A stretch of 64,000 bases of DNA from Cyanidioschyzon merolae (Eukaryota). The stretch lies in assembly GCA_000091205.1 (NCBI GenBank), contig AP006493.2; one strand, 5' to 3'. Under the pieces are notes generated by a model, which was given only the letters and a program-made list of their open reading frames with translations, ran no database searches and had not been told where the DNA came from. Shown in pieces: positions 8,084 through 61,500 of the stretch. Within the stretch, counting starts at the first letter, position 1, and each line of letters begins with the position of its first letter. The translations under genes were made by a program, and so were the position numbers.

Positions 8084-9211
8084 CTACTCACGCCCATCGG
8101 TATACTTGCCACGCCACTGACAATACGACCCCGAGTCCGAGAACTGTCCCTGGGTCGCCACTTCGGCTACGCGGCGGCCGGCCCCATCATTGGGAACGTA
8201 TTGCCGAGTGATGTACTTCTGAAGAATCGGGAAGAATACGTAGCGGAACCAGCCACGCTTTTCGGGGAAGAGGTTGCCGTCGGCGACACATCCGGGAATA
8301 ATAGCCACAGAGGTCACCCCGTCGCGGCCGTATCGATCACTGAGCGCCTTCGTTGTTAACACCTTCGCGGCTTTGGCGTCTTTGTAGGCTTTTGTGGGCT
8401 CAAACGGGCCTCTGTCCACCATGCCTGTCGTCTGCGGACCGAGCCCCGCGGCTAGACCAGACAAATCACCGAGACGAGCCTGTGGGGGGATCTTTCCCGG
8501 CAGCGAATTCGGCGAGTGGGTCTGAGTCGTCAGAAACACAATGCGCCTGCGCGATATTTTCAGCTTCGGCAACAGCTCCCGACATAGAAGCAAATGGCTC
8601 AGATGGCACACGTGCATGGTTTCCTCGATGCCGCCCACCGTGAAACGCGGTTTCTTGTCCGGCGGATGCTATATTGCGGCATTGCAGATCAGGGCATCCA
8701 GGTGATCGACGCGCGCCACACTTGACAGCTCTCTCACAAACTTTAATACAGAGGCGAAATCAGCCAGATCACAATGCAGCACTGTATAGGTGTCCTTTGG
8801 AAGGTTTACGCTGTTTGCTGCGCGCTCCGCCCGGTCGACGTCACGACATGCCATGACGATGTGCCAGTTGCCCTTGTTGACCAGAGCGCGAGCTGCATAC
8901 AGACCGACCCCAGAGGACGCGCCAGTGATCACGGCGATCTGCGACTGTTTCGGGCCCATACGAAGATGCAGCGCGTGGTGCCGGCGCGCTACAGGCGAAC
9001 GCTGCACCACCAAAGGAAGCGGATGCTGGCAGTGGTAACGATGTCCAGCTGCGAAGCACCTGTCACGTGCGGTACACAGCGGAAACGGTGCTCGAGTTGC
9101 AGCGGGTGCGCCAACTATGTGTTTTTCCTGGCACAGTGAAAAACAAACCAATACGTCTTGCAGTTTTTTGGGATAGATTTTCTCCGGTGGTAAAGCTGCC
9201 AACTTCATCAC
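8084..9211 (-). CDS. POR: Light-dependent NADPH:protochlorophyllide oxidoreductase (SDR family) with an N-terminal transit-peptide-like extension; one in-frame TAG (8669-8671)
   Basis: VITGASSGVGLYAARALVNKGNWHIVMACRD...LICNAAI, then TAG, then HPPDKKPRFTVGGIEETMHVCHLSHLLL...LGDLSGLAAGLG...KAYKDAKAAKVLTT...FPILQKYITRQYVPNDGAGRRVAEV. This aligns residue by residue with plant and algal POR. The TAG sits exactly at the conserved Tyr of CNAAVY(L/H)P. The two ORFs are in the same frame, and no GT/AG intron can remove the stop. Confidence 0.8.
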
Positions 9212-9513
9212 CGACTAAAGTCGTTCGCGTACGCATGCATTTCCAGTGAGAAATCTCTTTCTCGTTGCTGCACGAGTGATCGCCCGTCAATTGCACAGAG
9301 TCCGACTTCTGACTCCCGTAGACTGTCTAGCGTTGAGCGCATCGAGCACAAGCGCTCAATGTCTTCCACAGAGACGAGGCAAAGCTCTTATCATTCCAGA
9401 CACCAACCTCGCCAGTACTAGTAACTCAGTGCTCCGCATTGTTGCGCTTAGATATCACAACGATCGTAGTGGCACGATGCTGCACCCCGGCGTACGGCGC
9501 AGCGGACACGCAA

Positions 9514-9682
9514 GGGAATTCCCTCCAGCGGGATGATTTCGGCGCATATGCATCTGCCAAGGCGATGCTTCGAACAGCTGAGCTATTAGGGAATTCCCTC
9601 CAGCGGGATGATTTCGGCGCATATGCATCTGCCAAGGCGATGCTTAGAACAGCAGAGCTATTAGGGAATTCCCTCCCGCGCT
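9514..9682. repeat. 75-bp tandem repeat (2.2 copies) containing GGGAATTCCC and GCATATGC palindromes; upstream of POR
   Basis: The unit GGGAATTCCCTCCAGCGGGATGATTTCGGCGCATATGCATCTGCCAAGGCGATGCTTCGAACAGCTGAGCTATTA recurs at 9514, 9589 and 9664 (partial). Confidence 0.85.
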
Positions 9683-10559
9683 ATGCTTTCATTGGTTCGT
9701 CAGAGCCTTTCCATTGATTATATATTCCATATTGCCGGACCGATATTGGCTTTCGTGAAAGCGTCCATTATGCTGAGAAATATCTGTACGTTCCATCGCT
9801 TTTGCTTACTCTCGGCTGTTCTGGTCGTTTCATAGTTTCTTGCGTGCGTAGGTTATCTGTCGTGAGCACCCGCCGTAGCCTCTCTATCGCGTTGCGTAAG
9901 CACGCTGGAAACAGAGCAGCTCTTGCGTACCACTGGGCGCGTTGGAAGAGGCTTGGGTCATGCTACATGGGGTCAGGGAGATATTTTTTTCTTTGGAGCC
10001 TCCACGCGGCTCTTGCATACCACTTGCATGCGGTAGCGTTAAACGGTGTACTATTAGTCCACCGCGACGATGTTGACGCCCAGACGCAGCATGCCCGCTG
10101 CTAGTTCCAAGTTCAATTGCGTTTCGGAGGAACTGCCCAGGTTCCCCTTATCACTCTCCACTGAAATTTACACGGGGGCAGGCCGATAGATTTTCTCGGC
10201 TCGCAGACCTCCCACCTAAATGTAACACTGGACCATACGCGAAAACATCTTCCTTTTAAAGTTTACACCAGGTGGCGATATTACTCGCTATCCTGTTTTT
10301 GGATATTGGTTAGCTTTTTTTCTCTGTCGTGCGTCTTGGTAACGCATCGCGAAATCTGGCCGCCACGTCACACTACGTGCGTCTTGCCGATCAACGGAAA
10401 CGCTTTAATGACCTCTCCTGGAGCGACTGCTCTATCGGGGCCACTTGTTTTTGCGATCGAATCGTAGCAAAGTATAGTTTTGGCTTCAATGGCGTTTCAT
10501 TCTTCAAGAAAATGTATTAAACTTATTTTCGCCGTTCAAAGCAGAAGCGTCCACTCAGT

Positions 10560-12728
10560 TTTTCTCCCAAAAAACTTAGACTTATGTACTTGGAGGTAGT
10601 GGGTTTGGTTTGGCCGGTGTTCCCGGATTTCAGAAAGAAACGAGACATATTGCGTAGCGAAGAGGGTCAGGAAAAGAAGAAGAAGCAACATGGGGTGGCA
10701 TTACATCGACGGCTGCAATAGTGACGTCTGTACGACGAAATGGTGGTGGAATCCTATATTCTCCAACATATCAATGATCCGTACGACTGAATGTTGCGAG
10801 ACCCTATCAGAAACCGTGCCGGTTCGTACGCCAGGTATATTTGTACCTTCTCTTTAGGACTGTGGCTTTTGGAGAGCGAGCTGCATTGGAACGTAACGCA
10901 CATCGCAAAAGTGATATTTCCGGAAGAAATTTTCCAAATGACTTTCATCAACCACCTGATTGTTTTTAATGGGAAAACATCGGAGATAAATGAGCGAGTG
11001 CATGCCTTCCTTAAAAATAACGCCAAATACCGCCTCAGCGGTGCTGGACACCGGGGTGACGCAGACATTTACGCATACAGGGCAAAGAGGTGCCTCACGA
11101 ATGTGAGGAACCATAAAATGGCAAACCTCGATTGTTGAGTAATACGGGCCGTCTTTGCGCTGTACCTGGGCCTATTTCGCGAAGCAATGCTTGCAATCAT
11201 CGATGGTATGAAGAACGATCGCCAGCATGAACAGGAGATCAGACTCGTCGACAAGAGGACATCACGCAGGAGAAAGAATGATGCTTTTGTTATCCGCGCC
11301 ACTATTGTAAAACATCGCTCGGTCTTGGGGCATGTCAACCGAAGAGAAAATTTTCAGATATTTGAAAAGACGAACATAGGTATTACTTCCTCATCCTGCC
11401 CTGCTTTATGTTTTCGGACCGAGACCTCCACCGCAGGGCCGACATTGAGCAGAGTGTGGAAAAATGACGAGTGCGAGAAACGACATTGAAGTCTTCTCCA
11501 GATGCGCTTCAATGTCGGTCGGTTATGCGCGTTCAAGTCACATTTTGTGAATATCGACCCCATAGTCCTTTTGCATCTTCAGGATAGAGATCTATCCATA
11601 GCTCGATGTAATCAACAAATAGGTCTCCGGTGAAGATCGGGACGCCTACGAGAAGAATATCTTCGATTTCAAGCGTCCCGAACCGGCCAAAAAAAGGTTA
11701 TTCACTGGAACAATCGATCTCGATGTGGCGCACATATGTGTACACCATCAGCGGTTGAAGGCAGCTCGTCCTATCCCGTCTTCGTTACGGGCGTTGCCGA
11801 AGAACGAACACAGGTTGACGGGCTATGGAACGTATAAGCCCCATGAAAACCACTTTGGCGTCGGCCTTAGTCCCTGTAGCACGAATATCATAACCATCGC
11901 TGTTCCCAAGCGAAGGGAAGATTGCACTGACGGCACCTTACGCCACAAACATATGCTTCTGCTGAGGTTTTCGAGAGAGAGAGATACTATCGAGAATCCG
12001 GTATAATGAATGCAAGGAAGAAGATCGTTACGTGGAATGTAGGAATGAAGGATCACCTGGAGGCTTTGAGCATGGTGACGAGCCGATGAGCGGACATTCA
12101 AGCTTTTCTGAAATTCATGGAAGTTGGGGTTGCTCATTCCGTGGCGCTGTAGGGCGAGTATACAAAGCACCGCTGGGCACGTTTGCGTATGAATCTGTGC
12201 CGTGGTAAGCATCACGCATTCGCGAGCTTTTTCAATCGATTGAACGCCTTGAAAGAGAATCAAGTCAGAGGCTCGTTGTTACATATGGTGTAGGGAGCTG
12301 GGCTCCGAAAAAAAAAAGGACTACACCAGCTCCAGCGGCAGGAATGTACAAAGAATGCGCACTGTGTTTCTCTACGATACCTGTAGGTGAGTTCCGAACA
12401 TCGTATACACACCACGAGTTGGGATGTACTCTTCAGAAGATGGAGATGGAAAAGTGCCCGCGGAGTCGTCATGATATAAAAAAGTAAGGGACAGCTGACG
12501 GGAGAGCAAATGGAAAAGAGGGGAGAAGTTCGTGGACTACTTGCATTAGTAAGTACGACTACCATCGGCAAGAAACGTATGGAGTTCGCGAACCGAGTCT
12601 TTAACGCTGCAATCAATCCACGGAGATGTGCGGGAATAGACAAAAGACTCCCAGCGTCGACACGAGAAAACATTGTTGGACAACCTCTTAAACTGGAACT
12701 ATATGAGAAAAAATGGTACCCACAGTAG
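10560..12728 (+). pseudogene. TnpB/Fanzor-like RuvC nuclease reading frame, copy 1 (multiple frameshifts and stops)
   Basis: Basic stretch (EEGQEKKKKQ), then ...RLYDEMVV..., then the segment homologous to copy 2 (WNVTHIAKVIFPEEIFQMTFINHLI ... HRGDADIYAYRAKRCLTNVRNHKMANLD). RuvC-I-like position SPCSTNIITIA. Zinc-finger-like MYKECALCFSTIPVGEFRTSYTHHELGCTLQKMEMEKC (12344-12480). RuvC-III-like EFANRVFNAAINPRR (about 12585-12630), with the expected Asp replaced by Val. Confidence 0.5.
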
Positions 12729-12890
12729 GTGGCCGGTCGGAAAAGACGGGGAGGCGTCTGCACGTCAGCTAGAGATTTTTGGTCTAGGGCGAGTTTCTCG
12801 CCAGTACTGTACACTGCCGGCAGCAACGTTTTTGTTTTGAAAGGTGTTTGTTGTCGTCGTCGGGTGCGGCGGTCGTACGAGACGTTTCGG
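12729..12890 (+). ncRNA. Candidate omega-RNA scaffold region (conserved non-coding tail of element copy 1)
   Basis: The non-coding sequence just after the stop codon is conserved between the two copies at a level similar to the coding sequence. In TnpB/Fanzor systems the guide RNA scaffold overlaps and extends beyond the 3' end of the ORF. Confidence 0.25.
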
Positions 12891-14005: not shown

Positions 14006-15070
14006 TCAAGATGCTTTCTTCGGCGTGCTCTGGAGTGCCTCTATACTGGATTGGAGGTCTTCTTTCTCGTCACTTTCCATGAACGGCAGTATTTGTAGTA
14101 CTTCAACGACACCATTCCGACCTAGCACACAAGGCAACGACAAGAATACATCCGCCGACTCGAGGCCTCGCAACGAGCCCGCATGCGTCGTTATTGGCAG
14201 CACTTTGCGCCGATCATGCACAATCGTTGTAACGATGCTTCCAACAGCGCTGCCAATGGCCCAGTTGGTGTAGCCTTTCAGCTTAATGACCTCGTAAGCC
14301 GCGGCTACAACTTGCTGATGGACACCTTTCACCAGATCATAGAATGCTGTGGACGCGCTCGCAGCGTCGGTCATGCGCTCGAAGCATGTTCGCAACGGCA
14401 CGCCACCAACCGTAATACCACTCCGGTACACGAACGAGGAGTCTCCGTGCTCGCCCAGTACCATGGCCTGGACGGAAGCGGTATCGATGCCCAGCCGCTG
14501 CGCCAGAAGTGTGCGGAAACGCGAAGAGTCCAAATATGTCCCTGAGCCAATCACACGTTCGCGGGGCAAGCCACTCATCTGCCACGCTAGATGTGTCAAT
14601 AGATCAACGGGGTTACTCACAACCAACAGGATTGTGTTCGGCGAATACTGCACCAGGGGCGGAATAATGCCTTTGAACAATGCGGCATTGCGATCCATGA
14701 GCTCAAGACGACTTTCTCCGGGCCGCTGACGCACACCTGCCGTTATAATACATACTGCTGAATGTGCTGTATCCTCGTAGGACTCGGCAGCCCGGATGCG
14801 GGTGCTATAGAACGCACCTCCATGCTGCAAGTCCATAACTTGACCCTTGAGTTTGTCCTTAAGAACGTCCACCAGTACCAGCTCACTACAAATATCTCGG
14901 GTCAAAATATTATACGCGCAAGCAACGCCAACGTCGCCAGCTCCAACCACGGTGATGCGGACGGGGTACGAACGTGCAAGCGCCGCACCCGGCGTGTCGA
15001 TCGCAGGCGAGACCTCCCCAAAGAGACTTCCCTGAAGCTCAGCCGCTGCCTCGTCGATCCCTGACGTCAT
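14006..15070 (-). CDS. LDH: L-lactate dehydrogenase (LDH/MDH superfamily, LDH-type Gln at the specificity position)
   Basis: RITVVGAGDVGVACAYNIL...LVDV...GQVMDLQHG (Rossmann fold). ITAGVRQRPGESRLEL (Gln102 and Arg109 equivalents). VSNPVD. LGEHGDSS (catalytic His). Ends in TGA. About 30-aa N-terminal extension. Confidence 0.85.
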   Translation of the reverse strand: MTSGIDEAAAELQGSLFGEVSPAIDTPGAALARSYPVRITVVGAGDVGVACAYNILTRDICSELVLVDVLKDKLKGQVMDLQHGGAFYSTRIRAAESYEDTAHSAVCIITAGVRQRPGESRLELMDRNAALFKGIIPPLVQYSPNTILLVVSNPVDLLTHLAWQMSGLPRERVIGSGTYLDSSRFRTLLAQRLGIDTASVQAMVLGEHGDSSFVYRSGITVGGVPLRTCFERMTDAASASTAFYDLVKGVHQQVVAAAYEVIKLKGYTNWAIGSAVGSIVTTIVHDRRKVLPITTHAGSLRGLESADVFLSLPCVLGRNGVVEVLQILPFMESDEKEDLQSSIEALQSTPKKAS

Positions 15071-16334
15071 TCCAAAGAGCGCAGTTCCACGATTTGCTTC
15101 CTTGCGAGACAGATCTTCGAAAAAGTCCGACTACAGGTTTTAGATCGCCCGAGCTGCGGTGCAGGGTTGTTTCCAGCACTGGTGCCGAGATCGCTACAAA
15201 CCCGTGATCGTTTTGTTCTCCAGCACTATAGGCCTCGCCAAAACTAGGTACAGTGCTCTTTGATAACACAGCTGTCTGATCCACGAAGGTATTGCTTTAA
15301 GTCAGAGGGAACGCCCGAGACTGAGCGCCCTGAATAAAGCATGCTATCCGTTGAGGACACAAAGATGCACTTGAGGGCTTTCGCGATCGCCCAGAAGCGC
15401 CTTCCGGAGATTCGATCCAGAGCGATGCGCGTCTCGATGACGAGTCCGCCTCCGGAGCGTTTTTTTCTTTTTGATGAAAAAACGTTTGCATTGACCATGC
15501 ATCCCAGAATTCGGAACGCACGATGGCTTCCGGGGATATCTCGATCATAGTGCACCTGTCCTCAAGTCCCATTACCCATACTACCTCTCTGATATACTGG
15601 TCGTTTCGTATGTTCTATCGAGCGCCGAGCCTGTTGTGAGCACCCGCTGTAGCGCTTATACCGCTGAAGCAGGTGCTGCACAGAGACAGAACGGCTTTGC
15701 CATACCACTAAGGGCGTCCGCTCGAGGAATGATTCACCTGAACCGGAATCAGGGCTATTTGTCATTCTGGGAACATGCAAAATGCGCAGACAGACCTACT
15801 ACCTGCGACAGCGCGAAGTGCTGTACTAGGATTCCACTGCGACCAGGGCGAGGCCCAACGCAGCATCCTGTGCATAGTCTCAGGATGAAATGCGCTGCGA
15901 ACGAGCTACGCAGGTCTTGCAGCAGCAGCAGCAGCAGCAGCGGCGGCCACTTTAGAGGCATACCGAGCTCTAGCCCGGTAGACTCGACCGGCTCGCGGGA
16001 CCTTCCGCCTCGAACATAAGCTTCCGATAATACGGCGATCTATTTCCCCTTAAACGCTTATCGTAGAGCGGGAAAAAATTTTATATCGTTTCTTGTAAAT
16101 TGTAAGTCACTGTCCTTTTTCCTATATGGCGCGCTCGATACGTGCATCTCCAAGTATGGCACTTAGGAGACACGACGCGTGTGTCGCCATTGAAGAGAAA
16201 CGCGATCGTGACGACACGTTATCTTGTTGTTCTAACGGGCAAGTTGTATATCTGTGGAAGTCGTAACAAATCATAGTTTCCAGTTCGATTGTGTCTCAAC
16301 CCTCAAGTAAACATATTCAATTGATTTCTCGCAG

Positions 16335-16342
16335 TATATAAT
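16335..16342 (+). promoter_or_regulatory. TATA-box-like motif upstream of the Fanzor-like ORF (copy 2)
   Basis: TATATAAT in an AT-rich stretch 52-59 bp 5' of ATG 16394. Confidence 0.3.
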
Positions 16343-16393
16343 AGAAGGGTTCAAAGAGCGTTCTTTTTCACAGAAAAAAATGAAAAGAAAGTT

Positions 16394-18568
16394 ATGAAAA
16401 AGCAAGTCGACGATCCTGGAGGCCCAGTGTCGCCTGCTGCCAGAAATAAAAACAAAAAACAGAGCCGAGTCCAGAAGAACAGGAAAAGAAGAAGAAGCAA
16501 AAGGGGAGGCCCTAAGTCGAAGGCGGCAAGAAAGACGACTGTACGACGAGATGCTGGTGAAAGCCTGTCTTCTTAAACATATCGACCATCCCTACAAGGA
16601 AAATTTGCGAGACGCTATCGAAAAACGTTTCGATTCGTACTCCATGAGTATTTTCAAGGCGTCGTCAAGACTGATGCATTTGGCATGGGAGATGTACGAG
16701 AACGTGGCGCACTTAGAAACGGTCGAGATTCCGGACGATTCTTTCGATAAGACCTTTATTCGACACCTGATGCTTGGCACAGCGGAAACGCGGAGGGAAA
16801 ATGTGCTAGTGCATGGCCTTTACGAAAAACATCCCTTTTACAGGTTCGAGGGTACTCGATACAAGCGTGACCGGGATATTTACATGTACGGAGCGATGAA
16901 GTATATCACGAACCTGAAGAATCCTTTGGCAGCGAACCTCGAACGTTTCATGATACGCACCGTGTCTGCACACTGCCCGGGCATCTCTCGCAAAGGAGTA
17001 TGGGCGATTATCAATGGCATCACGAACGATCGTAAGCGTGAAGATGAGGTTGAATTTGTCAGGGAGAAGGCGTCATGCAGGAGTACGAATGAAGCTGCTG
17101 TAATGCGTGCGGCGATATAATAGCACCGCGCAATCTTGGGGTTGCCGAATCCAACAGAAAGGGTATCAGATTTAAAAAACGATAAGGAAAGATACTATTG
17201 CCTCATCCTGCGATATTTTTTGTCTCTGGACCGAGGGCTCCAACGCGAGGCAGAGATGAAGGTGAGTTGGAGAAAAAATGAAGAGTGGGAGAGACGGAAG
17301 GCTCTGCTAATGGGAAAGTGCGTCAACGTCATACCAATGTGCAACATCAAGTCACATTTCGTGACTATCGACTCCAGCGTCCTTTACGGCATCATGACGG
17401 AGATCATTCCGGAGTTCGATGTAAACAGGAAGGAGTTCACCTGTGATAACCGGGAGACGGACTGGAAGAATAGCTTCAATTTCAAACGTCTCGAAGTCAA
17501 CAAACAAAAGGTATTCACTGGGATGATCGAATCCGATGGATTAGCCATGTGTATACACTATCGGCGGTTGAAGACAGATCGTCCAGTTCCGTCCTCAGCG
17601 AAGCATGAAGATGAGAAGGATATGGGTCCTGCGACGAAGAAAGTGCATGGGAACGACTTTGTCGTTCGCGCGCACCCTGGAAACACGAATATCGTAACCA
17701 TCGCAGCACCCAAGCGTGCGGAAGATGGTACTGACGGCAACTTGCGTCAGAAAGACACGCGTCTGTTGAGATTCTCGAGAGCGAGATTCTACCGAGAATC
17801 GCGTATAATGGATGCAAGGAAGAAAATTAAGACATTGAATGCAGGATTGCGGGAGCGCCTTGAAGCTAGAAGGGAGGTGACGAGCCGTGAAGCAGACTTT
17901 GTAGCTGTTCGGGAGTTCATGGAAGTTCGCGTTGCTCATTGGGAGGCGTTGTGGAAAGAATACGCCAAGCCGATGCGAGCTCTTCTGCGTCCGAATCCAT
18001 ACTGTGGGAAGCAGCGTGCATTTGACAACTTTTTCAATGAGTTGAGCTTCTAGAAGGAGGACAAATCACAAAGGCTCGCAGTGGCGTACGGAGCAGGGCG
18101 CTGGAAGACCAGGAAAGGGACTACGCCACCTCCAACGACAAGAACGTTCAAGGAGTGCGTAAGACGTTTCGTTACGATACCAATAGACGAGTTCCGTGCC
18201 TCGTATACACACCATGAACTGGGGTGCACACTTCAGAGCGTGGAGATGGAAAAGTGCCAACGGAGCCCTGAGGATATAAAAAATACGGACCGCTGACAGA
18301 AGAGCAGCTGGAAAGTATGGCGAAAGTTCGTGGGCTACTTGCATTAGTACGTACAATCAATGGCGAGATACGTATGGGGTTTGTGAACCGAGACTTTAAC
18401 GCCGCAATCAAGATAAGGAAATGTACGGTGACGGAGAGAAGACCTCCAGAGTGGACAAGAGTGAACTTCAATGGACAACCGCTCAAAGTTGAACTGTATG
18501 AGAACAAATTGGAATCAGTAGAGGGGTGCCTGTCGAACAAGACTAGGATGCGTCTGCACAGCTGCTGA
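16394..18568 (+). pseudogene. TnpB/Fanzor-like (OMEGA-type) RuvC nuclease reading frame, copy 2; interrupted by in-frame TAA-TAG (17118-17123), TAG (18054-18056) and a frameshift near 18297-18316, or alternatively by unusual introns
   Basis: N-terminal basic NLS-like segment NKNKKQSRVQKNRKRRRSKRGGPKSKAARK (16394-16576). Two long ORFs in frame, 16551-17120 and 17136-18053. RuvC-I-like position VRAHPGNTNIVTIAAP (17673-17699), with His where the catalytic Asp of G-I-D-x-G is expected. Possible RuvC-II region ADFVAVREFMEV. Zinc-finger-like segment KECVRRF...YTHHELGCTLQSVEMEKC (18081-18296). RuvC-III-like GFVNRDFNAAIKIRK (18377-18421), matching the TnpB/Cas12 D-x-N-A-A-x-N-I signature. Confidence 0.55.
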
Positions 18569-18685
18569 AAACGTACTGTCGAAAGCGTGTTTCACGCTTC
18601 AACTGTACACCGCTGGCGGCAGCGTTTTTCTTTTGAACGGCGTATTTCCCGAAGGTCGTCACGAGAGCGAGGACTTCTATACAGC
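18569..18685 (+). ncRNA. Candidate omega-RNA scaffold region (conserved non-coding tail of element copy 2)
   Basis: Same reasoning as for 12729-12890. Conservation stops just before the UFD1 start codon. Confidence 0.25.
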
Positions 18686-18696
18686 AATAAGTTGTC

Positions 18697-19707
18697 ATGG
18701 ACGACAATATGTTACCGGACGATGTTGTGGGGCCTCTGCGACCAGCACGCCCCGTGCGGAGGCAGCTCGAAAGCTTCTCGCTTGCGTTCTCGAACGCAGC
18801 TCGGCCAGAGTACGAGCTTGGCGATAAAATCCTGCTTCCACAATCGTTGCTTGCGGAACTCATCCAATGGAATACCGAAGATCCAATGATCTTTCGCGTG
18901 CAAGCACAAAGATCCGAAAGAGTCACGCACGTCGGGGTGATCGAGTTTACCGCTGAGGAAGGCAAGTGCTACTTACCTCACTGGTTGATGCAGAACCTCG
19001 CCTTGCAGGAAGGCGACGTCGTACAGCTAGAGACTGCGAGTCTCCCAAAGGCTCGCTATGTGAAGCTGCAGCCACATCTAACTGAGTTCACGCAGATGAC
19101 GAACCCGCGGGCAGTGCTGGAGACGAGACTTCGGCACTATACCGCACTAACGGAGGGTGACGAGATCGCGATTGAGTACAACGGAAAAATGTTTTGGTTG
19201 ACGGTCATTGCTTGTGAACCGGCAAGCGCTGTATGTGTGACGGACACCGACGTGAGCGTCGAGTTCGCACCGCCGCGCGATATGCCCCCGGAGATGCCCG
19301 CGGTAAGGACAAACGCCGGGATGAGCAGCACATCGCAGTGCGCTGGTCGAATCGAGTTTGGGGACGCCACCGCCGCCACCGCTGGGGAACCCGCTGCAGC
19401 AACAACTTCCCGCTCATTGTGGCGCAGAAAGAACGAAAAAGCCGCTTCCGGGGATGAAGGCATGACCACTGGCAGCCGCGATGGCGTGCCGAACGCGCCA
19501 GCGAATGCACAGCCGCAGCACGATGACTACTGGAGCAAGCTCTCGGGGGGTCGGACGCTCAGTGGTCGACCAGTGTTTGCGTCTGATTCACCCAGAACCG
19601 TGGAAACATCAACAGGTACACCGAGCAGACCAAAGGCACAACCGACCTCAACCGATGGTCCCAAAAAGTTTGTACCCTTCTCCGGTACAGGTCGGACGCT
19701 GCGCTGA
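18697..19707 (+). CDS. UFD1: Ubiquitin fusion degradation protein 1 (UFD1)
   Basis: ILLPQSLLAELIQWNTEDPMIFRVQ...THVGVIEFTAEEGKCYLPHWLMQNLALQEGDVVQLETASLP...FTQMTNPRAVLETRLRHYTALTEGDEIAIEYNGKMFWLTV aligns closely to the UFD1 double-psi beta-barrel. Ends in TGA. Intronless. Confidence 0.9.
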   Translation: MDDNMLPDDVVGPLRPARPVRRQLESFSLAFSNAARPEYELGDKILLPQSLLAELIQWNTEDPMIFRVQAQRSERVTHVGVIEFTAEEGKCYLPHWLMQNLALQEGDVVQLETASLPKARYVKLQPHLTEFTQMTNPRAVLETRLRHYTALTEGDEIAIEYNGKMFWLTVIACEPASAVCVTDTDVSVEFAPPRDMPPEMPAVRTNAGMSSTSQCAGRIEFGDATAATAGEPAAATTSRSLWRRKNEKAASGDEGMTTGSRDGVPNAPANAQPQHDDYWSKLSGGRTLSGRPVFASDSPRTVETSTGTPSRPKAQPTSTDGPKKFVPFSGTGRTLR

Positions 19708-46750: not shown

Positions 46751-49221
46751 GCAGCAGCGCCGACTGTGCCAATTCGTGATCTTGGCGCAGATACACTACA
46801 GCCGCTTTTCGGGGAAGCGCGTGCACGGAACGAAAAGTCCTCGGAAGGAATGAGCGCTACGGACCCGCGGGCCGGCATCTGGAAAGCCAGTGGCAGGGAT
46901 CAGGTGCAGGCTGATTGGTCAGGCGTGGGTCCAAGGTGCACCGGGTAACTAGCACTGCCTGTTTTGGTCCTTGAGCGCTACCCAGTTCGTTTGAGAGCGC
47001 TCGCTGCACCCGGAGTCGCAGTACCCTCTCGAAAGTTTTTTCAGATTTATAGGTGAAAGATTAACGAAATCGATCAACCAAGGAAAATTACATCGCACTT
47101 TGGCACGAAAGAGTTGACAAGCAATTGAGAACCGCCGGCGGGAGGCTTTCCTAGCTGCTTTCTCAGGCAGCCTTGCGACGCGCGCGGAACTGCTGTGGCG
47201 GGAATTAGTTCTTCATAGAGGGTGTGACGACGACGAACACGCGAGATGCGGCGTCCTGGAATCGCGGATTCCCCGACGACCGATGTGTTCATCGTCGAGC
47301 GGGCTCCGCCCCAGTGGTATCCTGTGACGGAGCCATCCTGTCTCCGTCTGGCGTCTGCGCGAGTCTCAACATACATTCACACACACACACACAGACGGAC
47401 AGAATCGCAGGATCAACCGCGCTGTCATATCGTACCTGTTCTCTGTGTTCAGTCTGGTGACCATATCCCCATGTCAGACAGACATGGAACGGGTCCACTT
47501 GGCTCACTCGGGTATACATGGTTCATTTCCGGTGCCTCCAGGGTATCATCAAGGCCAGCCTGTACTTGCTTCTTCGCGAACGACTTCCTCATCCTCGCTC
47601 TTAACTCCGGCTTTGAATACGCCTGTCTCGACTTTACCTTCAGCCCCGTCGTCAGCAGTAGAAGGATGTTGATGGCAGCGGTATTGTGCCAAGTGCGCAG
47701 CTGCCAGCAGTTGCTGGCGCATTTCGCGCTCAGCAAATAGCTGCGATCTCCGGTTCACTTGCCACGTTCATCTCCTTTGGATGCAGCCTCGGTGCGCCAT
47801 TCGCAGTGGTGACACTTGCGTGTGGTCAGGACCTTCTATACGCCCGTTAAACCTCCTGCGCTTCCTCTGAGCGCCGCCCTTTGGCACGTGAACGCCTGCT
47901 TCGGCGCTCGGTACACGCCCTTGACTGCTACAGAGGATTTCCCTCAATGCCCTCTTGCGTTTGCGAGCCTGGTTCCGTACGCTTCCGTCCGAGGCGTCTC
48001 CTGGTCGATCCGCTCAGCGAGGACTCTCTCCGGTGCACGTGCCAGCGTATGCGCTTCCATTCGATAGGGGGGTTTTGGAACGCGATTTTGACCATGACGA
48101 AACAAGTTCCAGAGGGAAAATTCAGGCCGGAGAACAAGTCGAGAAAAACCGATCTGTCTACGACTCCTTCTCGCAAAGCGGTGACGCATTCTCTTTTGCA
48201 GGCAATCGCTGCGATAGCACAAGTCCGAGTCAACCACCTTTTCCATTTAAAAAGAGAATACGCGAGCCTCTGGGGGCATATCTTTGGCCGGCATTAAGCT
48301 GCTACTGACGAATGCCGTTTCTTCGACGGCCGCAAACAGAAGAAATTTTCTCTCTCGAACGGAATCGATGATTTGGCGTGACAAGTTCAGTGAATATCGG
48401 CATGAACTTGTGAACAAATCTTCAAGGAAGGATGTCGAGTCTGCTCTTCACCGTCAATCCAGCGTTGCGGATTTGTGCGCCAGCTAGTTGCCTTTAAACA
48501 GAAAACTTGAAGACTGCGTAATTCGAGCATGCGAAGCGGTGACCATTTGCATCTTATATCCATACACTGGACGATGGCATCGGTACTTTGACAAACCCCG
48601 AATGGATGGCGCTATGGATCATCCTTAATCTGTTGACGTTTCGAGTTCCAGCGAGACAACCTCAAACGAGCGACTCCAAGACGACGAACGAAACCAGTAG
48701 AATGAACAGATGAATCCGTGAGCCCTTCGTGCTGCACGTCGAATCTCGAGCGTATACATCCAAAAGCATACTCGGGAAAATCTCCAGGCGGGAACAGAGC
48801 CAGCAGTTCAGTGATCCATTTGAATCTGACAAGGATGTAGCAGCCTCTGGAGAGGCGTCGACATTGAAGCTCCGCTGAACGCCAGCAGTCGCGCACCCCG
48901 ATAGACCTCATCCGAATCGTCAATCCAACACCGTACACAACACAAGATACAGCGAGCTCCACTGGAGGCCGCTCCGAACCAAACAACCCCAAAGCGCATC
49001 CAAACGCTGAAATGTGCCCGCAAGGGTCATCTCGGGCACTTATCATGCCTCTTGAGCCGAGCGCGGGTACGCAGGCGGCATACTGTCGTGTCCGCGTGGC
49101 GTCCGGTGAGTCGCCCGTGCACCACCGCTGCAGAGGCATTCCCATCAGTTGACAAATGCGCACACGTACACAACATGTCGTGCATCCCAGCATCGCTCAC
49201 GAGCGCAAGAAGGCTCCGCGG

Positions 49222-51681: not shown

Positions 51682-53419
51682 GCAGCGCAGTGGCTACAAA
51701 AGCAACGGCCCCTTCGGCCCAAACTTAAGGTTTGTTACACTGTTACTGGAAAAGGAAAGGCCAAACACCGTCCAGGGTATGCGTAACTAGTTTCCAGAGC
51801 TTCACTGGTGTCGTGGAAACGACGCAACTGACTGAGACTTGCCTAACCGCACGAATAGCCGCACATGATCGTCGTGCAATCGAAGCCGCGTGCTTCAAGA
51901 GTACCAGTTAGAACTTAAAGATACCTATTTGTTCCAAAAATATCTATTTTTGTCAGATCTGTTCAGAAATCGTCGGATGACGTTGGTTCAATAAGCGCAA
52001 GCCTACAAGCACTGAGCATCTGCTGGCGTGTACCCTCGATCCACTCAAGCGCTGAACTTGTGAGGGATGTGCCTATCCTGGACTCTCGCCGTAGCGCTGG
52101 ACTATTAGGCCACCGCTGCAAGCGCCATACAAAGAGGGAATGGCACCACGGTACCTTTATTGCCGTTTACACGAAACTCGCTCGTGACTTCTTGGACCAG
52201 CGGCGGTCGAAAACCTCAGAATCGGACTCCTTGGATCGCGAACTCACCGTCGTTCAGGAGTTGCGTTCTGAACCTATCTCGTAGGCGCAATTTAATTGCT
52301 GCGCATTTGCGGAGAGTTTCGTCTTGCATTGTATACAGTCAAGTTGCACGATAGACTGCGCTCTCTGTGTGTTTTGAAGCACAGATCCCGCCGCAAGTCT
52401 CGCGAGATTATGTTGAAGAGATGCGTGCTTAGAGAACACTGTTACGGGAAAGCGCACGTCACCTGAGTATCTTTGAACATTTTCCAGTGAATTGCGAGAT
52501 TGCTTCCACTGAATACGGAGAATGCGATTTCCAGTGCAGCAGCAGAACATCGAACAATCGAGTCTGTCGGGTCCAAGATGCGCGCTTTTTACAGCACGCG
52601 CGCCATTCTCTGGTTCAATATTCGTTCTCGAACAATAGTTGCAACAGCGTTGAGTTAGTCTACTGGTTCACTATATCCGCGTTGTACTAAAACGTAACAC
52701 TAGAGTGCAGGCCCTGTTCCTGGGTGTCTATTTTTTCGCAATTTTTTCAAATGTCCAGCCTCGACATTCGAAGTTCAACAGTAAGCGCTTCCGGGATCAT
52801 TGGTTCGTTTTGCGGTTTTCAGAGGTCTTTCTCGGAGGGGGTCATTCGAGGTTGTGGCGCTGGAATTCGATACGTTACCCGAATGAAGATGCTTCACAAC
52901 GATTTGCAAGAGAGATGTGTTACACTGCAGATATCATGAATTAATCTGCCCGTGCATGTACCCGTTCTTCTCCTTTCCTTACGTGTAGCATGCTCAAATT
53001 CAATATGCTTCAAATTTTGGATCTTTGTGGTTCAAGCTAGCTCATGGGTGCAGCCATTCGAGCCGCTGCGTTGACGAGCAAAAATACGCGACGTTGTCCA
53101 TTGTCGACTAGTTCATGAGCTCATGCTGGGCGTTCACTGGCTCCATCACGTCAAGCTATCGATTCCTTTCGAAAGATGAAATCATCCTCTCTGTATATCC
53201 ATCGACGAAACATTATTCGACAGCAGCGTGACACCGCTTCCGGGATATGCCCCCAAGGGCTCCCGTCCGTTCTGTATCCATGGAAAAAGGGGTTAGTCTC
53301 GGACATCAGTCATCGCGGCGATTTTCTCAAATGGAGAGTGTCTCACCACTTTATACGAAACGAGCGTGGATGGATTGGAATTCCTCGACTTGGTCTCTAG
53401 CCTGGATTTTCCTTCAGGT

Positions 53420-53960
53420 ACTTGATTCCTGATGAACAATATCAGGTTCAACTAGTCCTGGATCGAATGGGACAGCGTTCGTTAGCATTTGCAGAACAAG
53501 CAGTTTTCGCGGAGGGGACCGCCAAGGACAAGTCAGTGTTCGTAAGCTATAGCACCGGGTCCGGAAATGGAGGAGGGTATCGAGTTGAGCCCTCTGTATC
53601 CGTCAAGGGCCTGTACCGAGCGAAGATGCGAGGCAACGCGCGGAATAAAGCGGATCGGGATGGAGGAGATATAACGGACATACACAGGAACTCTTGAGCA
53701 TGACCAAGTTTCACCGCAGCTAGGTGCGCATCGAATCTATATAGAATGCAGACGGAAACGGCAAGCAGAGCGTAGATCGCGTCTTCCGCGTGTGCATGAA
53801 AAGAGATGGCAAAAGCCGTTCGATGCGAAAACGGCAGATGAACACTGCCAGCAACATCAGCCGACTGCTGATAAAGAACCTGGCGAGACAAGCGCGACCG
53901 GTGTATTTAAAGCCAGGTACAAGAGACAGAAAAAGGAATCATTCAAGGAAAAAGTCTGCA
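53420..53960 (+). repeat. ~0.5 kb dispersed repeat, copy A (pair with 61000-61500); contains a short conserved ORF
   Basis: Blocks such as GGGTATCGAG..GAGCC.TCTGTA.CGGTCA...CCGAGC..AGATGC, ggcaagcagagcgtagatcgcgtcttccgcgtgtgcatgaa and gccagcaacatcagccgactgctgata recur in the same order and orientation at 61100-61480, at about 75% identity. Confidence 0.55.
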
Positions 53961-56125: not shown

Positions 56126-56576
56126 CGCACGGCTTGCGTACTGGGGTGCTCACACGCGCCGGTGGCATTCACACACGCTCAGACAGACAGCGGCGCATGG
56201 CGTAGACGGCTGCATCTGCAGCAGGGCGCGTTGGATGGCGCGCTGCTGGTGCGCCACAGGGTGTCGATAGCGAGGCATCCAAGGATGTTTCCCTAGACGC
56301 TGTCATATCGGATCATGGAAAGCTATTATCGTTCACCAATGACAGATGATAATCAATCCTAGTGTGGATTCAGGGCGCTGCAGTTTTCCTGGATGCCTAT
56401 TTCATACCGTACCAGTATCCCGCTCCAGGACGCAATCGAAATGCCGCACCTCCGGATCGCTAGGATTCTTCTCACTGAAAGTCTGCAACGTTTCAATAAG
56501 AGGCGCATACAGTGTACGACACGATTTACCTGAATGATCGCGCGACACATAAAGCCACTGGACGCTCCGAAATCAT

Positions 56577-57040
56577 GAGATCGTTCCCAGAGATCTCGAA
56601 TGGGGGTTTTCCAACGCTCGATAGACACAGTACATGCATGTGTTCTTATTGAAGAAATGTAAGCACGAGATCGTTCCCAGAGATCTGGAATGGGAGCTTT
56701 CCAACGCTCGATAGACACAGTACATGCATGTGTTCTTATTGAAGAAATGTAAGCACGAGATCGTTCCCAGAGATCTCGAATGGGGGTTTTCCAACGCTCG
56801 ATAGACACAGTACATGCATGTGTTCTTATTGAAGAAATGTAAGCACGAGATCGTTCCCAGAGATCTGGAATGGGGGTTTTTCCAACGCTCGATAGACACA
56901 GTACATGCATGTGTTCTTATTGAAGAAATGTAAGCACGAGATCGTTCCCAGAGATCTGGAATGGGGTTTTTCCAACGCTCGATAGACACAGTACATGCAT
57001 GTAAGCGCTCTTATTGAAGAAATGTAAGCATAGCGAGCTT
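56577..57040. repeat. Satellite-like tandem array, about 5 copies of a 90-91 bp unit
   Basis: The unit GAGATCGTTCCCAGAGATCT[C/G]GAATGGG[G/A]G[T/C]TTTCCAACGCTCGATAGACACAGTACATGCATGTGTTCTTATTGAAGAAATGTAAGCAC begins at 56577, 56667, 56757, 56847 and 56938. The last copy is degenerate. Confidence 0.9.
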
Positions 57041-58182: not shown

Positions 58183-60999
58183 TGCGCTTCAGCCACTTTT
58201 CGGATACGATATCTGCAGGTGCGACGCCGAGCACTAAACGATATCGTCGGGCGATCTGGGGCGATTCTGGCTCTCGTTGCTGCATTTTTTTTCGAAGTCG
58301 ATACCAGTTGGAGCTCTTGCGTATCCAGCTCGTCATTTGCCTCCATCGATATCCAAGAATCCCGTCAACCTATCTCCCCTGTTCTGGACCACTGAGGTGA
58401 GGCTGCGACATGCAGAGGGCGCGCTGCATGGGGCGCTCGACATTGGCCGGCATGTGGTTTTTGAGGTTGGCCCCAGACATGCCGGCACCTGCGCTGCGGA
58501 CGTTCTCATTACAGACGCCGGCCTACGAAGCGTCACGGCATGCTGGGTGGCGTGTTCTCAAACCCTGGATGCCACGACCAGGCCGTATTGCATCTTGTTT
58601 TCTGGCCATCTGTTGTCGCACGAACGTTTCATCGAAAGGTTATGAGAGGAATGTAGACAACTGGCGGCCGTGCGTCCAGCCCTCCGATGAGCAGATGCTT
58701 GACGAGGCGCGTCTGGGCGAGCGCAGCTGGGCGAGCCTTCGTTGAGTACGAAGCTGCGCGATCCTGAATGGCGTCTCGCATCTCACGGCTTGACAGATTC
58801 TCGCGGGTGGTGCATTTCTTGGGGAAGCGGTGGCATCGCTTTGAGACAGATCTTGTCGCTCCGACATCTGTTCCTCCCCGTCGCTCCTTACCCTATTCTC
58901 GGAAGGCTCTTTCTCTGGTTCGCCCGGTGGTCGCTTTTCTTTCTCTAGTTCCTGGCAGGCGCCCTGCATTCCATCTCTATCGAGCATATCTGTATGTCGT
59001 TCTCCCAGTGGAGACTCAGGCGCACTGGGTGGAAGGTTGCACTGAAACTCGCCCTTTCTATGTATGTATCGACTACTCCTCAAGCACCTCTCCATCGTCG
59101 TATCCGCCGAGAGCTCGCCCACGGACGGAAGCGCGCCTCTCAGCTCCCGTCCGGGCACGAGCAGCGCGGCGACGCATCAGCTCATGGCTTGCAAAGGTGG
59201 AGAATGGCTTCTCCAAGAACGGTGTCACAGATGCGGACGGCTCGTCGAATGAGTCGTGAGCATCCATCCATGGTTCGACAAACTGAGCAGGCTCCTTCAG
59301 CTGGACGGAACCAGGACGAATAGGCTCACGCAAACATCAGCTCAATGCCAAGCTCAGCTGCACAATCCGTGGCCGCTCTTGCGTGACAGAGGGCGACCTT
59401 GTCCAAGAGCGTATCAGAAGAATGTGGAAAGGAGAAGCCGAAAAGCGCTTCGACGCATCGTGAGGAGTTGAGTGATCACGGCTCTTTTGCTATTTGGTGT
59501 TGGCGACACCGAAGCCTCGCACCCAGGCCAGCTGGTGCCGTCCTGCTCGCTAATCTCCTTTGTAGGAATAGCGATTTGTCCCTCTTTGAGTAGGCATTCA
59601 CAGGTGTACCATCCCTCCAGATTCGAGTCTCAGCGATTGAGACGAACACCTCACGCTCCGGTAACAAACGTCCACGCGTCCATACGAGATCAATAGAGTG
59701 TTGTTTATTGCACGACAGTCTTCACGACGAGCGTTTTTCTCCTGTGTCTATCAGCGTGTCTTCATCAGCATTCGTATGAACCACACGGAAGCCTCACATC
59801 CTATGGCTTCCTTCGCCGTGTTCCTAGTAGAATGCATGGAATTCAATGGATTATCCAGGACACAGTCGTCTTGGTGGCGTTCGGTGACTTCTGTTTCGGG
59901 TGCACGATGCTCAGGACAGAGACGAGAACAGGAGCGCTTCATCCACTTGCGTATTAAAAAGTATCCGACATGTACGAGAATGACGATTTTTCGCAAACTA
60001 GCAGTCACAGCACCAAGTGTGCACGAGATTCTACTCCAATGTACAAAATATATTCCTTTTATAGTATACCTGCGAGAAAGACAATCAAATACGAATCAGG
60101 CGCTCTGGCACTAGAATCTCAGACTTCGATACACTTTGTCACAGAATACTAGGAGAGATGCATGCGATGACGTTTCCCCACGCACACAGAGATTATCATT
60201 CGAAGCAAGTGCCAGATTAAAATTCGAGACTGGGGTGTCCACGCTGTCTTGCCATTCGATTTTTCCAGCCATTTTTCAGAGGCACAGCCTCGGCATTCGA
60301 GGTGCAACGATGACGGCATGGGAATTCATACGTAGAGTTAGAATTCTCAGTCGTTATTTAGGAGAAGCATCTTCTACGCTGCGTCATGGGAATTCGTCAC
60401 GACACCGGACTGTCTATCTTTCGCGAAGCCTTCGAACAAGTTTTCATAGCATGACCGATGCCATTATCCAGTTCGTACGTACAGGTCCCTACTATTCTTC
60501 TTACCTCACATGCAATATGGTCAAACCACGCATTACTCAAGTTTTCGATTTTTCTGTTCGACGGCTACTCGTGGGCGCAGCATTACACGCAGGGGCATCG
60601 CTGACGAAAGCGACTCGGCGTCGTCACTCGAAGACTTGCTCACAAGCTCATGCCACAATTCACGTTACGTCTCACGCAGAGTAATCGATGCCAGTCGGAA
60701 CACAAATCCTCCTCTCTATTTTGCCATTCGCTAAACGGGATTCGATCGCAGCATGGTGCCTCCGACTAGCTACGCTCTCAGAGGATCCCGTCTCTTCACT
60801 TTCCTCAGAGAAGCTTTGTAGAGTCTGACATGAGTCATTACGGCGATTATTTTTCGTGAATCGCGCGTCACTGCTTTGCACGAAGGGGTCATACGAGGTT
60901 AGAAATATCCCAACGTGTCCTCCTGCCTGAAGTTTACTTCCTGCATTTGTTTCATCATGGAAAAACATCGCATGCCACAAATCCTCCTTCAAATGCAGC

Positions 61000-61500
61000 A
61001 GCATGCGCTTCCATATGCAGCTGACGGCATACTCTCCGAGCGAATTGCCTAGAAAAAGCCAGTGATCGTGGGGTCCAGCACTGGGCGCGGAAGCAGAGCA
61101 GGGTATCGAGCGGAGCCGTCTGTACCGGTCAGCCGCACACCCCGAGCAGAGATGCATGTCTAAAAGAGCCACAGGGCGATCATCGTAGTGCCCGGTGCGC
61201 TGGGCGTTCGGGAACACCTGACCGCAACCAAGCTCCATCGTTACGAAAGGCGTATCGAGACAGGTTGCGAAAAAGATGATCATGGCAAGTGAAGCGTAGA
61301 CCACAATTTCCGCCCGTGCATGAACTGTGTCGACAGCTTCTGGAAGCTGCGTGATTGGGACTTGAACGCCGCCATCAACATCATTCGACTGCTGACAACG
61401 GATCTGGAGAGACCGGAGAGACCAACGTGTCTGAGGGCAGAGATACAAGAGATAGGGAAAGGAAGCAATGACAAAAAATGACTGATATGCGTAGTATTTA
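61000..61500 (+). repeat. ~0.5 kb dispersed repeat, copy B (pair with 53420-53960)
   Basis: See copy A. It overlaps minus-strand ORF 60672-61448, whose product shares a segment (VDTVHARAEIVVYASLAMIIFFATCLD vs ISFHAHAEDAIYALLAVSVCILYRFD) with ORF 53547-53891. Confidence 0.5.

Follow-up and report, generated by a model that had tools for sequence, protein, structure and literature searches.

A conserved non-coding tail as a probable ωRNA-scaffold module at the right end of CMe-1A Fanzor1 transposons in Cyanidioschyzon merolae

The locus and its element copies

The window, a stretch of 64,000 nucleotides of the Cyanidioschyzon merolae genome, has a GC content of about 55% and genes without introns, in keeping with that genome. 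Two host genes were assigned in the region studied: an L-lactate dehydrogenase (LDH) gene and UFD1, whose product contains the Pfam domains UFD1_N1 and N2 (Table 1). Self-comparison of the region by blastn detected one long dispersed repeat, in which positions 10668-12847 (copy 1) are 68.7% identical to positions 16480-18643 (copy 2). Both copies contain a disrupted Fanzor1 gene followed by a conserved tail, and the tail of copy 2 ends shortly before UFD1. Another dispersed repeat is present elsewhere in the window as three diverged copies (47638-48525, 53146-53622 and 60529-61409; 63-68% identity, two inverted). Tandem arrays occur at 56571-57030 (units of ~90 nt) and at 9513-9690 (units of ~75 nt), the latter between the left flank of copy 1 and the element.

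Table 1 Positions of the genes and element features in the window
Feature	Position	Strand	Basis
Copy-1 tail: TAG 12785-12787, hairpin 1 12788-12802, ACTGTACAC 12806-12814, hairpin 2 to GGGTG 12862-12866	12785-12866	+	
LDH ORF	14006-15070	-	Exact match to BAM80408, C. merolae 10D
5' module of the copy-2 unit, resembling TE-N2_CMe	15465-16140	+	blast coverage, 80 loci
Copy-2 Fanzor1 pseudogene	16394-18568	+	Three-frame translation, motifs, 53 homologues, profile match to solved Fanzor1 structures
Stop codon of copy 2 itself, TGA	18566-18568	+	TGG (Trp) in most family members; 6/68 copies stop here
Commonest family stop codon, TAG	18581-18583	+	18/68 copies; GAA in copy 2
Hairpin 1 (candidate SL1), AAGCGTG-TTT-CACGCTT, 7 bp	18583-18599	+	Sequence, RNAfold, RNAalifold
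Linker motif ACTGTACAC	18602-18610	+	Nearly invariant; columns 88-98% conserved
Hairpin 2 (candidate SL2, guide-adjacent) and right end of the element	18608-18658	+	Folds, family covariation, strand asymmetry, conservation drop
Unique flank, the UFD1 leader	18659-18696	+	Entropy 1.8 bits, 40 unrelated flanks, UFD1 ORF start
UFD1 ORF	18697-19707	+	Exact match to BAM80409, C. merolae 10D

The reconstructed Fanzor protein of the window retrieved 53 homologues, all in JGI metagenomes. When its C-terminal 150 residues were used to scan metagenomes, 416 loci were confirmed, and the sequences of 80 of these 416 were analysed. Two more loci were added from exact-protein matches; de-duplication left 68 distinct tails from hot-spring metagenomes, 64-68 of which were used. 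The loci lie on eukaryotic contigs of Cyanidioschyzon relatives; in L003, the whole stretch between LDH and UFD1, both genes included, is collinear with that of the window (98.5% identity). The Fanzor C-terminus directly precedes the tail, on the same strand, in 87 of 89 nhmmer matches. A 16-mer motif of the tail matched the window at the two tails and at one weak site with 3 mismatches inside the copy-1 ORF, compared with 0.4 matches expected by chance. The similarity of the tails is not a chance match.

The CMe-1A transposon and its modular 5' part

A repeat of this kind was catalogued in C. merolae by Bao and Jurka (2013, PMC3627910) as CMe-1A, an element of ~3 kb that encodes a Fanzor1 and exists in about 150 copies with ~80% identity to the consensus. 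According to the same account, CMe-1A has no TIRs, its TSDs are undetermined, its class is unknown, and its 5' 635 bp correspond to another repeat, TE-N2_CMe; no 3' RNA module or right-end structure is described there (PMC3627910). The repeat unit around copy 2 extends from 15465 to 18658 (~3.2 kb), and its copies are 68-80% identical. Both window copies fit membership in CMe-1A, as matched by the published description rather than by the Repbase consensus sequence.

The 5' part of the element is modular. Blast coverage against the 80 loci begins at 15463-15474 or at 15560-15578, and elsewhere the TE-N2-like 5' module stands alone, is inverted, or is exchanged for other 5' modules, which meet the common core near 16145-16165. 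The TE-N2-like module of 635 bp (15465-16165 in the window) is found in either orientation beside the Fanzor core, being inverted in L047, L037, L063, L073 and L038, and a second, unrelated 5' module (…GTCGGACACGTGTCCTTCATCGATCGG…) occurs in L071, L076, L054 and L079. Despite this exchange of 5' modules, the 3' end is identical in kind across all copies.

At the left end, the sequence opens with a T-run and GATGACAAAACGTTT and has no hairpin to match that of the right end. In the search for a TAM or TSD, no conserved flank motif emerged at this end, and since the left end is modular no TAM can be defined. No second ORF with a family match, such as TnpA (Y1 HUH transposase), was found in the repeat unit. 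An IS200/IS605-type element was considered and rejected, as the unit has no TnpA, no left-end hairpin and no fixed flank motif. The left terminus (TTTTTCGATGACAAAACGTTTAC, 15465-15500) and the type-B right end (AACGTTTTTCTTTTGAAAGG, 18620-18645) show an imperfect inverted match around AACGTTTT, at ~13 of 20 positions. A match to the C/D-box snoRNA model snR75 of Rfam straddles the left boundary (15420-15510, plus strand; it scores 27.5 bits where the gathering threshold is 40, with E=0.018) and is probably noise.

The only tails without an ORF come from two related strains (L071:923-1029 and L054:796-893), where only the last ~110 nt of the element remain, from GCGTCTGCAC (the equivalent of 18546). 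They are not an independent family but an internally deleted orthologue of copy 1: the left side of the locus is syntenic with window positions 8623-9467, and the right side probably with the copy-1 flank (copy-1 tail 12750-12866). By this synteny, the copy-1 orthologue in these strains is reduced to a solo tail.

The Fanzor1 protein family and its two pseudogenes

When translated piecewise, both copies contain the TnpB/Fanzor motifs DEFR(T/A)S and NR(D/V)FNAAI. In copy 2 the reading frame meets stop codons at 17121-17126 and 18054-18056 and shifts near 18296; the RuvC-I Asp of this copy has become His (HPG at 17673-17681, codon 17673-17675), and its DEFR and NRD motifs lie at 18186-18197 and 18386-18394. 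Many more lesions than in copy 2 appear in the three-frame translation of copy 1, which reads SPC and NRV instead of DPG and NRD, so both Asp residues are gone. The catalytic residues (D of DPG, the relocated E of DEFRT and D of NRD) are kept in the family alignments and lost in the window copies. Because both ORFs are interrupted and catalytic residues are lost, the window copies are pseudogenes of the Fanzor1 family.

The family assignment depended on the depth of the protein profile. No Pfam match was obtained for the ORF fragments of the window, a shallow 7-sequence profile had no match in the PDB, and the AlphaFold2 model built from the same shallow 7-sequence alignment had a mean pLDDT of 35. 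A search of 1.84 billion representative sequences gave 2960 relatives, from which a profile of 75 sequences was built (first row P0001, 60% identical to copy 2). Only with this profile did the link to Fanzor1 appear: among solved Fanzor1 structures, the best match was 9cf0 (PpFz1, Parasitella; E = 7.5e-25), followed by 8gkh (SpuFz1, Spizellomyces; E = 1.5e-17) and 9cer (GtFz1, Guillardia; E = 2.8e-11), and the DPG, DEFRT and NRD motifs line up in these matches. Pfam Cas12f1-like_TNB was matched by 17 of the 75 relatives. By homology, the protein family of the window copies is Fanzor1; the preliminary description, made from the DNA letters, had called them Fanzor-like, and the profile E values (7.5e-25 to 2.8e-11) bear this out.

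Where the ORF ends

The two stop codons from which the tail was first measured, 12726-12728 and 18566-18568, are not the ancestral ends of the ORF. The former belongs to a frame-shifted reading of copy 1, and the latter results from a TGG-to-TGA change. In the frame set by NRDFNAA, the stop at 18581-18583 gives a protein ending in ...RRLHVSWRRFV*, and copy 1 keeps this ancestral TAG at 12785-12787. The longest open frames in the loci analysed, of 778-819 codons (L002 and L050), stop even further upstream, at the equivalent of 18476. From these family stop positions, the non-coding tail is at least ~75 nt long, with a greater length in some lineages.

Trp codons are recurrent sites of premature stops (TGG to TGA or TAG), in 10 of 68 copies at 18452 and in 6 of 68 at 18566, and a CAA-to-TAA change at 18476 is seen in 5 copies. 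Common ancestry of the copies, or a mutation process biased towards transitions, could explain these recurrent stops.

An overlap of the scaffold with the 3' end of the ORF had also been envisaged. RNAalifold on an extended alignment did offer a long-range helix between CAGTAGTGG in the ORF and CCACTACTG in the tail, but this helix conflicts with hairpin 1 and is not part of the structure favored here. It is nearly invariant and therefore uninformative for covariation, so the overlap is left without covariation support.

The right end of the element

Homology between the two copies continues beyond the ORF and then stops. In pairwise comparison, the last ~970 nt of the ORF are 72% identical and the core of the tail (18569-18645 vs 12771-12849) 70%, and the next 100 nt of flank fall to 53%, the level of shuffled sequences. 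This drop indicates that both the conserved tail and its abrupt end are real, and between the two copies the tail is conserved about as well as the (pseudo)coding sequence, as initially noted.

The family alignment places the end more precisely. Column conservation is 85-100% to the end of the ORF and mostly 70-98% at 18584-18645, and reaches background between ~18646 and 18658. Mean column entropy rises from 0.4-0.6 bits in the ORF to 0.7 in the tail and 1.05 in the last 30 nt of the tail, and stands at 1.8 beyond 18650. Across the 64-68 distinct copies the boundary lies at ~18650-18658, and many copies terminate in ...GGCGTTnnGGTG; by comparison with related copies, the termini of the window copies are ~...GAAGGTCG for copy 2 (18658) and GGGTG for copy 1 (12866). 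By this family-wide boundary, the element ends 39-47 bp before the UFD1 ATG (18697), and even the most generous pairwise alignment leaves ~29 bp.

The preliminary description had extended the tail to 120-160 nt, with the interval flagged to 18685 and the end 10-25 bp from the UFD1 start codon. The conserved tail with its abrupt end stands, but its length is ~90 nt (18569 to ~18658), and positions 18659-18685 are unique flank. The conservation might have continued into a longer shared flank once more copies were compared. It does not: the flanks of 40 independent insertions are unrelated to each other.

Anatomy of the tail

Beyond the commonest family stop, the remaining ~75 nt of the tail consist of three parts: a GC-clamped hairpin at the stop codon, the ACTGTACAC motif, and a long terminal hairpin. 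Hairpin 1 begins at the last base of the stop codon. Its family consensus is (G)GGCG-[variable 3-9 nt]-CGCC, with an invariant GGCG...CGCC clamp, a variable part that forms either a loop or an inner stem, and a local stem of 5-6 bp in most copies. In comparison with the consensus, two pairs of the copy-2 hairpin are changed on both sides with pairing kept (T-A for A-U, A-T for G-C).

The last CAC of ACTGTACAC opens hairpin 2 and pairs with the terminal GTG of the element, as seen in L012, whose hairpin 2 is an unbroken run of 19 pairs reaching from this CAC to that GTG. The commoner type of hairpin 2, type A, is CGTCGTTCGA-CTT-TCGAACGGCG, extended outwards. Both window copies carry type B, (AA)CGTTTTT-loop-AAAGGCG(TT), in a shifted register, and the hairpin 2 of copy 2 is eroded, as only a 5-bp core is left (18623-18627 with 18635-18639). 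In L021 (664-801), comparison with its allelic or orthologous loci L039 and L034 shows a tandem duplication of the terminal ~49 nt, which start at the 3' arm of hairpin 1 and include hairpin 2.

Support for RNA structure

Hairpin 2 carries most of the signal. Because the copies are related by descent, their independence is overstated, and the statistics of this section are only indicative. Among 20 distinct type-A sequences, 92.5% of the cells of the 12 stem pairs are paired, versus 31-52% with the partners slid; 4 of the 12 pairs change on both sides, and the observed values were reached in 1-3 of 500 shuffles. The covariation support for hairpin 2 is modest. The stem has 54 G·U cells versus 3 A·C cells (~22% vs ~1% of stem cells).

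The predicted folds are also strand-specific. The mean folding energy of hairpin 2 is -13.9 kcal/mol on the plus strand and -8.6 on the minus strand for 49 distinct sequences (p=2e-8), and -16.2 vs -11.1 kcal/mol for 33 cluster representatives (p=2e-5), whereas size-matched control segments of ORF and flank show no strand asymmetry. The copy-1 tail folds at -25.1 kcal/mol (+) versus -15.4 (-). Whole tails are only modestly more stable than shuffles, with a mean z of -1.5 and 11 of 35 below -2. The tail of L012 reaches z = -4.2, and the copy-2 tail folds at the shuffle level (z = -0.1 with dinucleotide and -0.3 with mononucleotide shuffles).

Hairpin 1 shows no significant covariation family-wide, and RNAalifold on the tail alone returned only its 4-bp GC clamp. 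Rfam gave no match for the 10-20 kb part of the window or for the well-preserved L012 tail, with only sub-threshold snoRNA noise, and a covariance model of hairpin 2 recovered the type-A subfamily only and no new copies. The conserved structural RNA proposed at the outset is thus upheld in part: the covariation and G·U bias of hairpin 2 argue for it, but hairpin 1 is not significant and the copy-2 fold does not exceed shuffles.

The tail as a candidate ωRNA scaffold

Guide RNAs of Fanzors are established. The candidate ωRNA of CMe-1A is positioned in sense, directly after the nuclease ORF, from the family stop (18581-18583) to the right end (~18650-18658). We therefore favor, with a probability of roughly 0.68, the interpretation that the tail is the non-coding right-end ωRNA-scaffold module of the CMe-1A Fanzor1 transposon, present as a relic in copy 2. 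The grounds for this reading are position, orientation, boundary, RNA-type pairing and analogy, and it is by analogy that transcription, binding, guide use and cleavage would follow.

In active members, the tail would be transcribed in sense, either alone or within the 3' portion of the Fanzor transcript. The putative scaffold would comprise the short GC-clamped hairpin at the stop codon, the ACUGUACAC linker, and a hairpin of 12-19 bp ending at the transposon boundary; transcription would continue into the flank, whose first ~15-20 nt would supply the guide. With this ωRNA bound, Fanzor1 would then cut those copies of the insertion site that are vacated or unoccupied; such cutting has been shown for TnpB and other Fanzors.

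The tail of copy 2 (18569-18658) is unlikely to act today, because its nuclease gene is disrupted, a catalytic Asp is lost and its hairpin 2 has decayed. As copy 2 is a decayed relic of the catalogued CMe-1A, a tail of this kind is expected rather than new biology. Its would-be guide (~18659-18678) coincides with the UFD1 leader simply as a consequence of where the element inserted. There is no sign of guide action on UFD1, nor is such action implied by Fanzor biology.

Other explanations of the tail

The tail might be a transposon end at the level of DNA only, a single-stranded hairpin recognised by a transposase as in IS200/IS605 or at Helitron 3' ends, with no role in a guide RNA. CMe-1A has neither TIRs nor TSDs and no known class, its 3' end is constant among copies with variable 5' modules, its terminal hairpin ends a few nucleotides from the boundary, and L071 and L054 are reduced to the 3' ~110 nt; a DNA hairpin of the top strand with a function in transposition could yield similar signals. 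The wobble pairs weigh against a role in DNA alone: G·U wobble, which RNA helices typically contain and which is costly for a hairpin of DNA, makes up ~22% of the stem cells against ~1% for A·C. Moreover, the element encodes a Fanzor1, and characterised Fanzors draw their guide RNA from the same position. A purely DNA-level end is unlikely. The two roles are not exclusive, as the right-end hairpin of IS605 belongs to its ωRNA, and a hairpin function in DNA may coexist with an RNA function here.

A 3' UTR of the Fanzor mRNA, conserved for expression through signals of 3'-end formation or stability, is a distinctly less probable source of the same pattern. It would account for a tail directly 3' of the stop codon in sense orientation, for structure specific to the sense strand, and for the U-rich runs in the hairpin-2 loop of the window subfamily. 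A UTR would need neither conservation exactly to the boundary nor a terminal stem closing on the last bases of the element. According to PMC10278001, TnpB processes the 3' end of its own mRNA into ωRNA, so a UTR would largely merge with an ωRNA scaffold.

The surroundings of the right end raise a further explanation. In 14 of 37 independent insertions, an ATG-initiated ORF of at least 300 aa starts on the same strand no more than 100 nt downstream of the CMe-1A right end, versus 7.4% of random window positions; with the ORF threshold lowered to 120 aa, the count is 18 of 37 versus 15%. This suggests insertion or retention of CMe-1A just upstream of gene starts, in sense orientation. Right ends near gene starts are seen at 18658-18697 in the window and in L061, L013/L015, L052, L024, L025, L039 and others. 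As these right ends adjoin host start codons, the ωRNA "guides" of many copies would be host 5' leaders. A bolder extension, in which CMe-1A targets or is retained at gene starts and some nuclease-dead copies with intact tails were co-opted as RNA-guided or promoter-supplying regulators, is very doubtful.

The same excess of right ends near genes (14/37 vs 7.4%) would be expected if the tail were a mobile promoter or 5' leader for the downstream host gene, here UFD1. Yet such a gene is absent at 23 of these 37 insertions, and the likeness among dispersed copies points to selection on the mobile lineage rather than on each host gene. Nor does the tail clearly stand out within the element for its conservation between two strains (1 difference in 93 nt vs ~2.5% in the remaining element, which is not significant). 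Such a function is highly improbable.

Least credible of all is a tail that still codes for a C-terminal extension of the Fanzor protein, as some gene calls suggest by running through it (P0006 and P0011, ending in ...GGFLATTVHGRHRPCDRRWWCW): the commonest stop precedes the tail, there is no three-base periodicity, indels are not multiples of three, hairpin loop length varies, and solved Fanzor1 proteins end shortly past the RuvC-III motif.

Significance

If the ωRNA-scaffold reading is true, a red-algal Fanzor1, here that of a thermoacidophile, would for the first time have a described ωRNA. CMe-1A, for which the transposon class, the ends and the target site have not been settled since 2013, would gain a ~75-nt scaffold of two stem-loops and a linker, together with a sharp right end. 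Genome-editing work could take an interest in a heat-tolerant Fanzor whose scaffold is known. For annotation, the conserved non-coding block beside UFD1 would be transposon debris and not a host regulatory element.

Comparison with known systems

In the literature searched, no treatment of a C. merolae Fanzor RNA was found. Among the closest known systems is CMe-1A itself with TE-N2_CMe (PMC3627910); the published family and the window copies have in common the genome, a length of ~3 kb, a Fanzor1 gene, old and diverged copies, the absence of TIRs and a 5' part that also occurs as a separate repeat. Like Helitrons, CMe-1A has a hairpin a few nucleotides from the 3' end, no TIRs and variable 5' ends; unlike them, its end is not CTRR, no RepHel gene is seen, and its hairpin is G·U-rich and much longer.

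The ωRNA (reRNA) of the TnpB of ISDra2 and IS200/IS605 elements is likewise a sense guide RNA from the right end, with a subterminal hairpin and a guide taken from the flank. The scaffold of bacterial TnpB overlaps extensively with the 3' coding region of tnpB and contains a pseudoknot, whereas in CMe-1A an ORF overlap is unsupported and no TnpA-type transposase is present.

Fanzor1 ωRNAs have a common SL1 of 7 bp and, in SpuFz1 and PpFz1, an SL2, followed by the guide (PMC11423790); other Fanzors bind RNAs of the 3' non-coding region adjoining the right end (PMC10530073). The ωRNAs of PpFz1, the best protein match, and GtFz1 (PMC11423790) share with CMe-1A a 5' SL1 and variable downstream stems before the guide, but differ from it in length and sequence, the SL2 of PpFz1 having only 4 bp and GtFz1 having four stem-loops (150 nt).

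A further close counterpart is the SpuFz1 ωRNA of Spizellomyces punctatus (Saito et al. 2023, PMC10432273; Xu et al. 2024, PMC11423790), which has no detectable sequence similarity to the CMe-1A tail and has been shown experimentally, whereas the RNA of CMe-1A is predicted from sequence. Spu-1 elements carry inverted repeats of 30 nt, and their TAM is CA/CATA; in CMe-1A no TIRs and no TAM were found. SL1 is 7 bp in SpuFz1 and mostly 5-6 bp in CMe-1A, and the SL2 of CMe-1A is much longer (12-19 bp) and G·U-rich. In both systems a Fanzor1 of ~640 aa is encoded by the single ORF of the element, and a non-coding scaffold of ~75 nt lies between the Fanzor stop and the right end. SL1 and SL2 in SpuFz1 are followed by a variable, flank-derived guide, and the two hairpins predicted in CMe-1A are placed in the same way. 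The comparison with published Fanzor ωRNA structures that had been recommended thus reveals, at the family level, a shared SL1-SL2-guide layout (PMC11423790, PMC10432273).
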